Sequence record: NC_130088.1
Reading direction: 5' to 3' (one strand)
From: a phage
DNA: 49,713 bases
Shown: positions 5,409-42,290 of the stretch, one piece after another
Numbering within the stretch: the first letter of the stretch is position 1
Layout of the letters: the number at the start of each line of letters is the position of its first letter
Program-made: the position numbers and the translations under genes
The notes under the pieces: model-generated
What the model saw: only the letters and a program-made list of their open reading frames with translations
Database searches by the model: none
What the model was told of the DNA's origin: nothing

Positions 5409-5897
5409 ATGGCTCAGATTTCAGCAAGTTATCATGTTGCAATGGCTCGCGCCTTGCCTGGTCAAGTTTCCGACACTTCCGCGTATAACATCGACGGAGC
5501 TTGTGTTCTTGAGAATGCAGCAGGCAATCAGAATAAGCCTGTTTTTGTTGGTGTGGCGGTCCAGCATGGCGGCGTTGACGCCATGGGCAATAAGCTGATT
5601 AAGCCGATGGCGGCAAGCGGCAAGGCTTACGGCGTTGCTATTCGATCCAACTTCCAGACCACATCTAAAGATGGTCGCATGGTTTATGAAGCTGGTAGCG
5701 GAATTAACGTAATGACTAAAGGGCGCGTTTGGATGTTATCTGTAGAGTCGGAAGCGCCAGCATTCAAAACAGCTATCAAACTTGATGATTCAGGACAGGT
5801 TGATTTAACGTCTGGATTAATTGAAACCACTTGGATCGCAACTGGAGACTTTACGGAATTCCAAGGTCTAAAACTCGTTGAGGTTCAACTGGTATAA
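5409..5897 (+). CDS. Head-module protein, paralog A (possible decoration/structural protein)
   Basis: 162 aa; shares blocks (YNIDG, GRVW/GRIW, C-terminal VQL) with the next gene. Confidence 0.45.
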   Translation: MAQISASYHVAMARALPGQVSDTSAYNIDGACVLENAAGNQNKPVFVGVAVQHGGVDAMGNKLIKPMAASGKAYGVAIRSNFQTTSKDGRMVYEAGSGINVMTKGRVWMLSVESEAPAFKTAIKLDDSGQVDLTSGLIETTWIATGDFTEFQGLKLVEVQLV

Positions 5898-26687: not shown

Positions 26688-27296
26688 TTAGCAATCAGTG
26701 CTATCGACGGAAATCACAACGCGTTTCTTCTGATTGGCTTCCTTTGCTTTGCGCCGTTCTTCTTTCGCCTTATCGCGTTCAGCTTTGCGCCGCGCTTTCT
26801 CCTTCTCGCGTTCTTCTGGACTCATAGACCGCAACGGATCGTAAGGCCGCACAAATCCTCTTGCTTCCGCCTCCTCTTTGGTTACAAATCGCATCAGCTT
26901 TCTGTTGCTGCAACGATTCTCTAATGGCTTGCCGTTATTATCAAATTTGATATCTGGACGGCAATATGAAGCGCGGAAGCCGTTAAAACCTTTGCGTCTG
27001 TAATCTTTCTGGATCAGTTCAGCGCCTTTAGTTGAAATCATGCCGCGCTCTTTCCATCCCCATACTGTTTTAAGGTTAACGCCAATTTCACGCGCCAGGG
27101 CAGCGCAACCGCCATAAGCGCTAACCACTTCATCAAGCCTAGCTTTTAATCCTGCCCTTACTTCTTCCTTTAGTACCAGATAACCGCTAACAGGTGCGCG
27201 GCGCTTCCTGTCTTTACCACGCCTTACGCCGTTGTTACCATTGATTGTGCGTTTGTCGATTTCTCCCGTTGAGGCCGCAATTTTGATTTCGCTCAT
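26688..27296 (-). CDS. HTH DNA-binding protein with basic Lys/Arg/Glu-rich C-terminal tail
   Basis: HTH-like segment GGCAALAREIGVNLKTVWGW; AGGTGA SD; divergent from helicase gene. Confidence 0.45.
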   Translation of the reverse strand: MSEIKIAASTGEIDKRTINGNNGVRRGKDRKRRAPVSGYLVLKEEVRAGLKARLDEVVSAYGGCAALAREIGVNLKTVWGWKERGMISTKGAELIQKDYRRKGFNGFRASYCRPDIKFDNNGKPLENRCSNRKLMRFVTKEEAEARGFVRPYDPLRSMSPEEREKEKARRKAERDKAKEERRKAKEANQKKRVVISVDSTDC

Positions 27297-31634: not shown

Positions 31635-32750
31635 ATGAGTTTAAAAAAGATTACCGACGAGCAATTGATCGCTGAACGTGAGGCGGGTTTAAAACTGCGT
31701 GAGATTGCGGAAAAATACGGAATGAGCTTGCGCCAGGTTGAGCACCGCCACAGCAAATTAGCAAAGCGTGGCGAGATCTCAACTATCGGATCACCTGGCT
31801 TTGCGGTAATTGGCGAGTCAAAGTTAGTTGATAAAAACGGCAATACTAAACTAACCTGGATTAAGACGCACAAAGATAAAGACCAGTTAGAGGCAATAAT
31901 GCAAGCGGCTATGGCTGCATTTTCTGGCGAGTTGCCACGCCTGGAACCACAGCCGGAAAAGATTGCTGACTATTCGAAAACCCTTGCGCTATATCCGATC
32001 TTTGATATTCATATTGGTGCAATGGCTCATAAGCATGAAAGCGGCGAGAATTACGACACGGCAACGGCAGAAAAGATCATGAATGAATTCTTTGATTATG
32101 CCGTCGATAAAGCACCGAATAGCGAAAAGGCTGTATTGCTGATTGGTGGTGATATGATTCACAGCGACGGCCTGGAGGCTGTAACACCTGCAAGCGGTCA
32201 CGTTTTGGATCAGGATTCGCGATATGCGAAACTTGTTTATGTTGCCATTCGAGCCACGCGCAGAGCAGTAAGCCGAATGCTGGAAAAACATAAAGAGGTT
32301 GAATTGCAGATCATTGAAGGTAATCACGACCAATCAGGAATGATCTGGCTACGTGCTGCAATGGCGGCGGCGTATGAGAATGAGCCACGCGTAAAGGTTG
32401 ATGTTTCTCCGCGTGTCGTGCATCACACTCAATATGGTAAAACTTTCCTGGCTTATCATCATGGTCACACTGTACGCAAGCCAGAAACGCTTTTAATGAT
32501 GTGTGCAGCGGATTGGCGGGAAGATTTCGGAAACTCCAATTCAATGTATGCGCATGTAGGGCATTGGCATCACCAGACTGTTACAGAAACGAGCCTTGGC
32601 ATTGTTGAGGTGCATAGCACTATGGCAGCAAAAGACGCTTACGCCGCGCGTGGTGGCTGGCGTTCACGTCGCAGGGCGGCGGTAATTATTTATGATAAGG
32701 AATATGGCGAAATAGGGCGCTTTATGTTTTACCCTGAAATGATTGCTTAA
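31635..32750 (+). CDS. Metallophosphoesterase (calcineurin-like) with N-terminal HTH-like segment
   Basis: Motifs D-x-H, GGDMIH, GNHD, GHWHH; N-terminal LKLREIAEKYGMSLRQV. Confidence 0.6.
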   Translation: MSLKKITDEQLIAEREAGLKLREIAEKYGMSLRQVEHRHSKLAKRGEISTIGSPGFAVIGESKLVDKNGNTKLTWIKTHKDKDQLEAIMQAAMAAFSGELPRLEPQPEKIADYSKTLALYPIFDIHIGAMAHKHESGENYDTATAEKIMNEFFDYAVDKAPNSEKAVLLIGGDMIHSDGLEAVTPASGHVLDQDSRYAKLVYVAIRATRRAVSRMLEKHKEVELQIIEGNHDQSGMIWLRAAMAAAYENEPRVKVDVSPRVVHHTQYGKTFLAYHHGHTVRKPETLLMMCAADWREDFGNSNSMYAHVGHWHHQTVTETSLGIVEVHSTMAAKDAYAARGGWRSRRRAAVIIYDKEYGEIGRFMFYPEMIA

Positions 32751-36401: not shown

Positions 36402-36444
36402 ATTATAACGGCAACATTCTACAGCCTTTTAGCAATTCGTGCTA
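36402..36444 (-). promoter_or_regulatory. Conserved 19-bp box plus TATAAT (class-2 unit, minus strand)
   Basis: Box contains the TAG stop of the upstream gene. Confidence 0.5.
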
Positions 36445-36690
36445 TTTGATCGGCTCAACCCTGGCTAATAACTTTCCGTCTATAATGCTATGACATTCAA
36501 GAGTTTTAGGATCGAATGCAAGCGAACGATGGAACGTATGACCAATCAGCAAATATGAATGCTTATCCCTGATGCGATAGACCGTTTCACCTTCCTTTAA
36601 TGACGATATCGCACTAAAAACAACCTTGTAACGATATTTTTGCATAGCCTCAGAACGGTGAGGAATGTAATCTTTTTCCGGTAAACTCAT
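36442..36690 (-). CDS. Hypothetical protein
   Basis: 82 aa. Confidence 0.4.
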   Translation of the reverse strand: MSLPEKDYIPHRSEAMQKYRYKVVFSAISSLKEGETVYRIRDKHSYLLIGHTFHRSLAFDPKTLECHSIIDGKLLARVEPIK

Positions 36691-40051: not shown

Positions 40052-40094
40052 ATTATATCAAGATACCCCGATCCGGTTTTAACAAAAAATGCTA
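40052..40094 (-). promoter_or_regulatory. Conserved 19-bp box plus TATAAT inside a hairpin loop (class-2 unit, minus strand)
   Basis: GGGGTA..TACCCC stem around the -10. Confidence 0.5.
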
Positions 40095-40095
40095 T

Positions 40096-40530
40096 TTACA
40101 GCCATTCGCCGGAAACAATGAAATCAGTGAAATCGTCATGATCCAAAATGCTGTGATAGCCAGTGCAATAATCATTTTTAACCATGTTACCACGCAAACG
40201 CACATAATCATCCTTTCGATCCGTAATCCAACGAATAAAGCGAGCGTTACGTTGTGGTATCGTTCCGGCGTAAGCCTCTTTGAATCCAATGTGTGCGATG
40301 AATGCCACAAAGCGGATTTGCAAGCCTGGATTGTCTTTCTTTGCCTCGTTAACCAGGTCGCGGAAGTTTTCACGCGTTGGCTTTACCGGAACCAATTCGC
40401 CTAACTCGATCATGCGGTTGAAGTCTGAAATGCTGGAATATGATTGCATAAACAGCCCATCGCTACCAAACATCACAACTCCGTTTTCGATGAAGTAAGT
40501 TTGTCCGTTGTATTTGTTTGTGTATTTCAT
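40096..40530 (-). CDS. Hypothetical protein
   Basis: 144 aa from internal ATG with GAGG SD. Confidence 0.45.
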   Translation of the reverse strand: MKYTNKYNGQTYFIENGVVMFGSDGLFMQSYSSISDFNRMIELGELVPVKPTRENFRDLVNEAKKDNPGLQIRFVAFIAHIGFKEAYAGTIPQRNARFIRWITDRKDDYVRLRGNMVKNDYCTGYHSILDHDDFTDFIVSGEWL

Positions 40531-40561
40531 CGTGAATTCCTCAGTTAGTTTCGATGAAGTA

Positions 40562-40604
40562 ATCATAGCAATTCGTGACTGATTGGTTTTAACAAAAAGT
40601 GCTA
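40562..40604 (-). promoter_or_regulatory. Conserved 19-bp box plus TATGAT (class-2 unit, minus strand), first unit of the leftward operon
   Basis: Box/gap/-10, CATCGAAAC leader. Confidence 0.5.
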
Positions 40605-40613
40605 TTCATGCAG

Positions 40614-40643
40614 TAGACCGATTGGTCTAGACCGTTTGGTCTA
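40614..40643. promoter_or_regulatory. Operator-like composite palindrome TAGACC-gatt-GGTCTAGACC-gttt-GGTCTA
   Basis: Three GGTCTA half-sites in alternating orientation; a fourth GGTCTA at about 41086. Confidence 0.4.
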
Positions 40644-40700
40644 ATGAACGCATCGTTTTGTGTATCGAACGCATTCATGATCCTGTTACGTGATCGTTAT

Positions 40701-40781
40701 ATGATCAGATGATGATTGATGTGTGAGATTTTGTGATTGAAATTGATTTGATTTGATTAGATTTGAGTAGTGAGTGAGTAG
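40701..40781. repeat. Iteron-like array of short direct repeats (GATT / TGATTGA / GTGAGT units) in AT-rich DNA
   Basis: Direct reading; no ORF. Confidence 0.5.
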
Positions 40782-41247
40782 AAATAATCACACCTTGCCG
40801 ATCAGTGAAAACTTTTCCCGCAAAACATCACTCCAGGCTACGCGCTGTTATCTTCCGTTCATGGGTGTTCACAAATCTATCCGGCGTAGTTCTCCGACGG
40901 TTCTATGTGTTAGCCACACAAAAAGAACAAAATAAAACTCTATATAATAATAATTAAAACAGTAAGTTATCTATATATATGTATTTATTTGTTTCTATAC
41001 TGTTTCTAATGTTCCATATGGTTAGTGGTGGGTGATATATTGTTGATGGTGGTATTTGGTTAATATTTAGCCTATTGCGCCTGGTCTAGTGGTGGATTGA
41101 GAAAAATATATTTATATATAGGAATCCGCGAAAATTCATGAACGTATGAACAGCCAAAGAACGCGTTTTCAATTTCAAGTAAAACATTCACTTACGCTGA
41201 AAATTTGTTCCACTATAGGTATGGAACGTAAGCACACAAAAAACTAC

Positions 41248-41276
41248 TTGACGAGAACAAATGGCGGCGATAATAT
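41248..41276 (+). promoter_or_regulatory. Sigma70-like promoter TTGACG-17-TAATAT (early promoter B)
   Basis: Hexamers read directly; leader and SD paralogous to promoter A. Confidence 0.65.
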
Positions 41277-41312
41277 GCCACAACGAACTAACCAACAGGA
41301 GGATAACCAATC

Positions 41313-41762
41313 ATGGCAACTACCAAAGAGTTTTGCGACAGCTTGCGTGAACTGGCGAAGAAGTTAGCAAGCGGAGAGCTTGATAATTACATCATTGCCG
41401 ATGCTCTTATCGAGGACAATCTCGACGAGCAAGACCGGAAGAAGGTCAACGCCTCATACATTCGCACGATCATGAATCGCGTCCCTGACGTGAAGGAGAT
41501 CGGAACGGTTTCAATTACTCGCACTGATCCGGTTGAGGAAGCGCCAGGGTTTAAGGTGGCAATCAACCGCGAGGCAAAGCGACAGGTATTCACAAAAAAT
41601 GATATTCCTGCACTGGAAAAGCGGATCGGTGAGCGAATCGCCAAGCGACTGCTAAACACAATGCCAAATATCACGGATCTGGAAGGTGAACAACTCCAGG
41701 GCGCGGCAATAGGAATTAAACGTTATCAGGATCTGATTAAGTCATTTGCAACGGGGGAATAA
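41313..41762 (+). CDS. Hypothetical protein
   Basis: 149 aa, SD AGGAGG. Confidence 0.5.
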   Translation: MATTKEFCDSLRELAKKLASGELDNYIIADALIEDNLDEQDRKKVNASYIRTIMNRVPDVKEIGTVSITRTDPVEEAPGFKVAINREAKRQVFTKNDIPALEKRIGERIAKRLLNTMPNITDLEGEQLQGAAIGIKRYQDLIKSFATGE

Positions 41763-42224: not shown

Positions 42225-42247
42225 CGGATTACATCCTGATTGGTAAA

Positions 42248-42290
42248 TAGCACTTTTTGTTAAAACTCAATTGGGGTGGTTTGGCATAAT
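42248..42290 (+). promoter_or_regulatory. Conserved 19-bp box plus CATAAT (class-2 unit)
   Basis: Box/gap/-10, CATCGAAAC leader. Confidence 0.5.

Follow-up and report, generated by a model that had tools for sequence, protein, structure and literature searches.

A tandem palindrome resembling the host nemR operator lies beside the likely packaging region of the T1-like Citrobacter phage Devorator

The largest non-coding stretch in the genome of Citrobacter phage vB_CfrD_Devorator, a divergent intergenic region of 746 bp (40567–41312), raises the question of which signals a T1-like phage keeps between its leftward and rightward gene blocks. The window analysed here, the whole 49,713-nt stretch of sequence record NC_130088.1, was assigned to this phage through 100% identity to OL539461.1 over a 1.1-kb query. 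Devorator is a virulent, T1-like phage of the genus Tlsvirus (Drexlerviridae, Tempevirinae) with pac-type, headful packaging. T1-like phages are classic and poorly understood; their packaging (pac) signal has never been defined in sequence and their regulatory DNA is largely uninterpreted. A first-pass annotation, made from the sequence alone, had described a palindromic operator-like site and an array of iterons in this region, and had proposed a regulatory hub or a replication origin. The account that is on balance favoured here is that the control region holds two adjacent, separable elements, namely a tandem pair of boxes resembling an operator of the host regulators NemR and RutR (40614–40643) and a pac region (40676–40830).

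The first element reads TAGACC-GATT-GGTCTAGACC-GTTT-GGTCTA and consists of two 16-bp inverted repeats, here called boxes, with a central TA in common. The palindrome of the first-pass annotation is real, but it contains four GGTCTA half-sites and not three, arranged in two overlapping inverted repeats (Table 1). A further half-site had been pointed out near 41086; the hexamer exists, but it has no partner arm, is not conserved and lies outside the element, and being unpartnered and unconserved it was taken as a chance occurrence. GGTCTA or TAGACC occurs 10 times in the 49.7 kb, compared with approximately 24 calculated for a random hexamer on both strands, and four of these ten copies fall inside the 30-bp element. 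No other copy of TAGACC-N4-GGTCTA is present in the genome outside the pair.

Conservation was assessed across the control region with an alignment of 12 Tlsvirus phages. The boxes are present in 10 of them, with carriers infecting E. coli, Citrobacter and Salmonella, and only a single one of the 30 box columns is variable among the carriers, compared with 25–45% of columns in the surrounding intergenic DNA (P = 8e-5). In ElisaCorrea and CF1 DK-2017, approximately 50 bp (the equivalent of 40612–40665) are swapped for an unrelated cassette, and no box is found anywhere in either genome. A scan of viral contigs for single boxes (TAGACCGNNTGGTCTA) gave more than 120 matches, mostly unrelated, and was uninformative for want of context; its one useful yield was a variant in phage LL5 (11354–11383). 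There, box 1 is intact, and two symmetric substitutions in box 2 (TATACCGTTTGGTATA) leave the dyad in place, which could reflect selection for symmetry or palindrome-templated mutation.

Sequence matching the boxes lies upstream of nemR in enterobacteria. Box 1 is identical at 16 of 16 positions to the nemR-upstream box of C. koseri, and agrees at 15 of 16 with those of E. coli, Salmonella and Citrobacter sp. NCU1, the sole difference being one spacer base. In E. coli K-12 the sequence upstream of nemR is CTTGCAC-TAGACCGACTGGTCTA-CTACACT, with the box positioned 14 bp 5' of the start codon and occupying the spacer between hexamers read here as -35 and -10. In Salmonella enterica, Citrobacter sp. 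NCU1 and C. koseri, the arms of the nemR-upstream box are invariant and the flanks drift. NemR homologues with 82–86% identity were found in four Citrobacter species, in two of which the upstream box was read. NemR is a sensor of electrophiles and hypochlorite, and RutR is a pyrimidine regulator; the palindrome upstream of nemR is said to have been named the 'NemR box' by Umezawa in 2008.

NemR is counted among the core TetR-family regulators of Escherichia and Salmonella, and point mutations in the NemR-binding site lead to derepression of nemRA-gloA. A passage in PMC13178969 that cites Gray 2013 describes autorepression of NemR through an inverted-repeat operator in its own promoter. For RutR, chromatin immunoprecipitation with microarray detection (ChIP-chip) placed the protein at exactly TAGACCGACTGGTCTA, the ydhM (now nemR) site of E. 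coli (PMC2475637). Of the 20 ChIP targets, 16 bound RutR with high affinity in electrophoretic mobility shift assays; ydhM/nemR is not among the four that are named as low-affinity (PMC2475637). Occupancy of the nemR promoter by RutR is reportedly without regulatory effect. When compared with the RutR box TTGACCAnnTGGTCAA, each phage box fits 11 of 14 positions by our own count, with the critical A4 and T13 intact, and the ydhM/nemR site fits equally well (11/14). Judged by these sequence comparisons, 40614–40643 is quite probably a competent NemR/RutR binding site. The palindrome may be read as a mimic of a host NemR/RutR operator, a reading that is new for this phage group; a literature search found no paper linking NemR with T1-like phages, and the palindrome is not mentioned in the paper that reannotated phage TLS (PMC11447400).

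The tandem form was sought with the pattern GACC-N4-GGTCTAGACC-N4-GGTC in one genome per bacterial species. This returned 56 bacterial loci, compared with approximately nine calculated for chance, and at most of them the match continued into the flanking TA, a dinucleotide outside the search pattern. At 31 of the 56 loci the motif adjoins a regulator of approximately 200 aa that is similar to NemR or RutR, mostly at a distance of a few to some tens of bp. All four of the motif-adjacent regulators checked against Pfam contain the TetR_N domain (PF00440), and the alphaproteobacterial examples have a C-terminal domain of the same class as E. coli NemR. Given these regulator-adjacent loci and the TetR_N domain, the motif represents an operator type of TetR-family regulators, for which the 14-bp tandem form is natural. 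When the phage genome was translated in six frames and searched with a profile built from NemR, RutR and 29 motif-adjacent regulators, no TetR-like protein was detected, so a binder of the TetR type would have to be supplied by the host. As a separate observation, on one metagenome-assembled contig labelled 'Enterobacteriaceae' (CAZPJM010000034.1) the tandem motif lies upstream of a 385-aa open reading frame (ORF) and not of a TetR-family gene, and a similar ORF is also found downstream of the motif in a Nannocystis genome.

On their left, the boxes adjoin a copy of the T1-like 21-nt repeat aaATAGCACnnnTTGnTAAAA, of which the window contains 21 copies compared with 0.24 expected. The repeat is annotated as a repeat_region in phage Stevie and has been described for TLS, where its function is listed as an open question (PMC11447400). 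A -10-like hexamer follows 17 of the 21 copies at a distance of exactly 19 nt, and because of this fixed gap the repeat is taken to be an upstream promoter element; its TTGnTA stands 22 bp from the -10, which is noncanonical as a -35 spacing. Two further regularities accompany the repeat. At 15 of the 21 copies, the interval from the 21-nt element to the start codon contains a perfect inverted repeat of 5–8 bp, variable in sequence, which brackets the -10 in approximately ten of these, and a conserved ATCGAAAC leader follows several copies.

Transcription from the leftward promoter (P_L) is predicted to start near 40555. Relative to this point the boxes span approximately -59 to -88, with centres near -66 and -80. 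They are located off the P_L core, so a bound protein could not directly block RNA polymerase, and the classical mode of NemR repression is inapplicable. The presence of a NemR-type operator sequence is well supported; repression as in the host is not supported. The rightward promoter (P_R) at the far end of the control region corresponds to promoter P01 of TLS, among only three canonical promoters predicted in that phage, and its -35 hexamer is kept in 12/12 relatives.

The second element, the block 40676–40830, is conserved in all 12 aligned phages. It includes a triplet of GATC (Dam) sites, the only one in the genome to span 24 bp or less. All 12 GATC columns are invariant, compared with 13 variable columns among the 25 interspersed (P = 0.0015). 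Devorator has a Dam methylase gene of its own, and in TLS DNA the GATC sites carry Dam methylation. To the right of the triplet lies the tract that had been called iterons. At 82 nt it is the longest C-free run of the genome, where approximately 9e-4 such runs are expected genome-wide, and its TGATT content is the densest of the genome, with five copies in 82 bp compared with 0.25 expected (P = 7e-6). Tandem Repeats Finder (TRF) identified TTGAT in 4.8 copies at 40743–40766, and the density of TGATT is maximal at this tract in 6/6 Tlsvirus genomes examined.

Both the TLS and the U136B record have their position 1 at a base that aligns to 40726, within the block, which is approximately 95% identical to TLS. 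In the TLS paper, position 1 is the pac end, deduced from submolar pac-HindIII and pac-EcoRV fragments of approximately 6 kb and 2.7 kb, and the pac was then fine-placed on 'AGATTT' by analogy to P22 (PMC11447400). The actual HindIII and EcoRV sites of TLS are at 5876 and 2733, and the mapping is self-consistent. In Devorator, 40726 has three invariant TGATCN sites to its left and five TGATT to its right. In T1, position 1 of the record is the start of the annotated terminal redundancy, and the order of features in T1 and in a Klebsiella Webervirus is that of Devorator, with the leftward 21-nt element followed by a dyad, GATC sites (in T1) and a TGATT array. Phage SU57 offers a PhageTerm hint only, in the equivalent untranslated region. 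The record starts of Sazh, U136B and the GS phages were considered as independent evidence for pac and rejected, since these starts were set by analogy to T1 or TLS. The small terminase is a member of PF16677 (GP3_package), the P22-gp3 family, and its gene is located approximately 8.8 kb to the right of pac in TLS. No site matching the integration host factor consensus was found in the region. We regard it as likely that 40676–40830 is the pac region, and the C-free TGATT tract is the probable core of it; TGATT may be the target of the terminase, and methylation of the GATC sites may be relevant. The pac region was coarsely known for the group, and its conserved determinants are newly delineated here. 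In this way pac would be narrowed to a conserved block of 155 bp, with the invariant Dam triplet and a TGATT array common to three Drexlerviridae lineages as the candidate determinants.

Several observations weigh against this two-element account. The equation of the inverted repeat with the NemR site draws on indirect citations and on cross-species conservation, and the Citrobacter sampled are four species other than C. freundii, the recorded host. Enterobacterial nemR promoters hold one box and not a tandem pair. A sigma-70 scan and a reading of both strands revealed no recognisable promoter core overlapping the boxes. Two natural relatives, ElisaCorrea and CF1, are without boxes, and in a Keio-collection screen with LL5 the only host functions reported as required are TolC, lipopolysaccharide genes, PpiB and SecB, with nemR and rutR unmentioned. 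Taken together, the boxless relatives and the LL5 screen indicate that the boxes are at most accessory, which fits a modulatory role. With regard to packaging, we estimate the mapping of the TLS pac to be precise to about ±100–150 bp, and AGATTT is not conserved at the TLS-equivalent position. The P22 pac consensus GAAGATTTATCTGAAGTCGTTA is absent, the best regional match being 13/22 and ranking 38 genome-wide.

The replication origin proposed earlier would have the repeats bind an initiator beside an AT-rich unwinding element, with the GATC cluster acting as in oriC, and it can draw on the repeat array, the GATC cluster, a stretch of GC content 0.20 at 40900–40999 and the position in the largest non-coding region. 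The short direct repeats do exist, but they are units of 5–6 bp in DNA of GC 0.32–0.35, and the truly AT-rich part is the stretch at 40900–40999, which is poorly conserved, with approximately 80% of its columns variable. A search for iterons as at least three direct repeats of 17–22 bp, using TRF and a repeat search, gave a 5-bp unit in 4.8 copies, a 14-bp palindrome unit in 2.1 copies and one 21-nt pair. No initiator domain is recognisable in the flanking genes: for gp57 no Pfam family was matched, and gp58 belongs to DUF7174. The genes for primase and helicase are approximately 12–15 kb distant, a lone near-consensus DnaA box, seen by eye near 40911, is not conserved, and the conserved block, including the supposed iterons, coincides with the mapped pac end of TLS. 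GC skew, tried as an indicator of an origin, follows gene orientation and is uninformative. T1-like phages are not known to have a mapped origin. The iteron array was not borne out and an origin is unlikely here; nothing specific supports an origin co-located with pac.

For the palindrome itself, three other explanations were considered. One is that it serves as the operator of a phage-encoded regulator governing divergent early promoters. A strongly conserved tandem dyad in the main divergent regulatory region would suit such a role, and the phage does encode a helix-turn-helix (HTH) regulator (26688–27296; phrog_2856, 'transcriptional regulator'), which the first-pass annotation had suggested as a binder together with an HTH-containing phosphoesterase (31635–32750). 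All Devorator and all ElisaCorrea ORFs were therefore screened for covariation against four box-bearing and two boxless genomes, scored as % identity × coverage. No ORF tracked the presence of boxes in either direction, which argues against a dedicated phage-encoded binder. The HTH regulator scores 97–98 in five relatives, and the product of 31635–32750, an exonuclease whose HTH_23 match is below threshold, scores 94–99 in five, the boxless ElisaCorrea and CF1 being included in both cases; neither suggested binder covaries with the palindrome. The identity of the boxes to a host operator, the lack of a TetR-like protein in the phage and the location of the boxes at -59 to -88, off the promoter core, likewise tell against a phage repressor, which is very unlikely. 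The site is operator-like in that it matches the host nemR promoter repeat, to which RutR binds in the host, but not in the manner that had been proposed.

It is quite unlikely, too, that the palindrome is part of the pac signal as a site for the small terminase, with its likeness to the NemR operator coincidental. It does lie 85–110 bp from the aligned TLS pac end, inside the estimated mapping error, and the different dyad at the equivalent spot in T1 and a Webervirus would fit a lineage-specific recognition element. However, ElisaCorrea is boxless although its small terminase scores 100 compared with that of Devorator, and the small terminases of CF1, without boxes, and TLS, with boxes, both score 91. 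Furthermore, a 16/16 match to the host operator, occurring twice and in the tandem geometry typical of TetR regulators, is very unlikely to arise by chance. The least probable explanation, and a very improbable one, is that the boxes have no function and are either neutral remains of host DNA once captured by the phage or a chance palindrome. Two relatives dispense with them and the left flank TGCAG in Devorator resembles the Salmonella nemR promoter, but a single variable column in 30 compared with 25–45% around it (P = 8e-5), the retention of boxes in phages that infect E. coli, Citrobacter and Salmonella, and the symmetry kept by the change in LL5 tell against this explanation. The tandem form is missing from the enterobacterial species genomes scanned, apart from the contig CAZPJM010000034.1, and so the pair was not simply copied over from the host.

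Under the preferred reading of a host-type operator beside a pac region, host NemR, probably as two dimers, would occupy the tandem boxes on the phage DNA, and RutR possibly would as well. Both the binding of NemR and/or RutR at the phage site and any regulatory consequence are put forward here from sequence. Occupancy of the boxes might adjust the activity of the leftward promoter, or how accessible pac is, to electrophile or chlorine stress in the host; alternatively, replicating phage genomes might titrate NemR off the host genome. In either case the boxes would be accessory and not essential. At the adjacent block, a small terminase of the P22-gp3 type would assemble at 40676–40830 and make the first headful cut there, with packaging proceeding rightward. 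A more speculative extension, which we hold only tentatively, is that Tlsvirus phages exploit NemR (and/or RutR) as a read-out of host physiology, either gating early transcription or packaging until stress occurs, or titrating NemR and so inducing nemA and gloA detoxification. Binding by NemR would connect a strictly lytic phage to its host's sensor of bleach and electrophiles, with relevance for how phages behave in the inflamed gut, in chlorinated wastewater and during phage therapy. Even without such binding, the readings of the region as an iteron-type origin and of the palindrome as a phage repressor site are removed.

Sites for host factors may be exchanged as cassettes in the slot that separates the leftward promoter from the TGATT array. 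In Tlsvirus this slot is occupied by the NemR boxes, T1 and Webervirus have a dyad of the form ATTCCA...TGGAAT there, and ElisaCorrea and CF1 have yet another sequence. The T1 dyad, located around the junction of the record's end and start, reads ATTCCA-N7-TGGAAT(-N4-TGGAAT) and that of the Klebsiella Webervirus VAC8 reads ATTCCAC...GTGGAAT (975–1075), each then followed by a TGATT(G) array. The cassette of ElisaCorrea carries a small dyad of its own, CGAAC-N5-GTTCG; when searched with BLAST against the phage collection it gave matches only via the shared 21-nt promoter element and no other homologue.

At 40633–40674 lies a pair of 21-nt direct repeats, part of which falls within the segment that is exchanged in ElisaCorrea and CF1. 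The pair also has a weak inverted symmetry, ATGAACGC...GCATTCAT, which had been reported as an imperfect dyad around AACGCAT; the symmetry is there, but the sequence is better called a 21-nt direct repeat. Among the box-bearing phages, 8 of the 32 columns at 40644–40675 are variable. Approximately 45 phage records match 40567–40845 at 82–100% identity, and past approximately 40830–40845 the sequences of the relatives split into unrelated families. An IMG/VR search with the gp57 protein, made to obtain unbiased relatives, gave four loci only, two of them with gp57 in a different context, and was uninformative. A transfer RNA scan and an Rfam scan of the window found nothing. One 49-kb GenBank record, OR786094.1 ('Streptococcus phage MBBL140'), is 95–96% identical to the Tlsvirus region and ends where TLS ends; it is labelled as a Streptococcus agalactiae phage, and either this host assignment appears to be mistaken or the entry represents contamination.

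Three further observations concern the DNA to the right of the conserved block. The second-longest C-free run of the genome, 55 nt, is found at 41016–41070, and approximately 34 nt of it are missing from most relatives. Within 41016–41070 and 41087–41095, TAGTGGTGG occurs twice and GATGGTGG once, and these resemble the Chi octamer (GCTGGTGG). Inside the stretch of GC 0.20, CTATATAATA at 40938–40949, with a perfect TATAAT, is invariant in 12/12 relatives amid variable surroundings. It is without a canonical -35, and a promoter scan gave a minus-strand candidate at 40973–40944; CTATATAATA could be a promoter in either direction. The positions of all features are collected in Table 1.

Table 1. 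Features of the Devorator control region and its surroundings (positions in the window unless another phage is named)
Feature	Position	Strand	Remarks
Box 1	40614–40629		TAGACCGATTGGTCTA; 16-bp inverted repeat TAGACC-N4-GGTCTA; centre approximately -66 from the predicted P_L start
Box 2	40628–40643		TAGACCGTTTGGTCTA; 2-bp (TA) overlap with box 1; centres 14 bp apart
Replacement cassette	ElisaCorrea approximately 585–640; also CF1 DK-2017		TCAGCAAAAT[T/G]ACCAACGTTCATCTTAACGAACAATC...
21-nt direct repeat pair	40633–40674	+	CGTTTGGTCTAATGAACGCAT / CGTTTTGTGTATCGAACGCAT; 81% identical; carries GAACGCAT twice
Three GATC (Dam) sites	40679, 40692, 40703 (40679–40706)		each in TGATC context
C-free TGATT-rich tract	40707–40788	+	'iterons' of the first-pass annotation
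Right flank of conserved block	40789–40830		includes AATCACACCTTGCCGATC; 18/41 columns variable compared with approximately 80% beyond 40831
Lone GGTCTA	41083–41088	+	GGTCTG in Stevie and ElisaCorrea
P_L -10 hexamer TATGAT	40562–40567	-	exactly 19 nt from the 21-nt element; predicted to drive gp57 and the leftward block
21-nt element, upstream element of P_L	40587–40606	-	2/20 columns variable among relatives
21-nt repeat, further example	42246–42265	+	
21-nt repeat, further example	40077–40096	-	
21-nt repeat, further example	36427–36446	-	
P_R, canonical sigma-70, TTGACG-N17-TAATAT	41248–41276	+	gp58 and the rightward block; bounds the control region
gp57	40096–40530	-	first gene of the leftward block
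gp58	41313–41762	+	first gene of the rightward block

Compared with known systems, the phage boxes share with the enterobacterial nemRA-gloA box the same 16-bp TAGACC-N4-GGTCTA, with both arms identical and a G-N-N-T spacer. The settings differ. The host nemR promoter has a single box in the spacer between the hexamers read as -35 and -10, whereas the phage has an overlapping pair upstream of the predicted start, and Devorator is a virulent phage without a nemR or nemA homologue whose boxes stand beside the presumed pac. In the tandem spacing the phage resembles operators of RutR and the TetR family that are bound by paired dimers, with boxes 14 bp apart in many bacteria. This tandem form is absent from the enterobacterial species genomes scanned, except for the one metagenome-assembled contig of uncertain origin.

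Iteron origins such as lambda ori and plasmid oriV have in common with the Devorator region direct repeats near an AT-rich stretch, but their units are approximately 17–22 bp compared with 5–6 bp here, and here the AT-rich part is not conserved and no recognisable initiator domain is adjacent. Among packaging sites, that of P1 is flanked at the cut by Dam-regulated clusters of TGATC(A/G) hexamers. Devorator is similar, by analogy only, in having a cluster of TGATC-type Dam sites beside the presumed cut and a Dam methylase of its own; P1 PacA, however, is unrelated to the Devorator terminase. The pac sites of P22 and SPP1 (pacL/pacC/pacR) were also compared: the Devorator small terminase is of the P22 gp3 type, but the P22 pac consensus is lacking and the presumed pac lies approximately 8.8 kb upstream of terS and not inside it. 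In position, the conserved block aligns with the pac end of TLS and the left end of T1, two phages in which pac is coarsely mapped.

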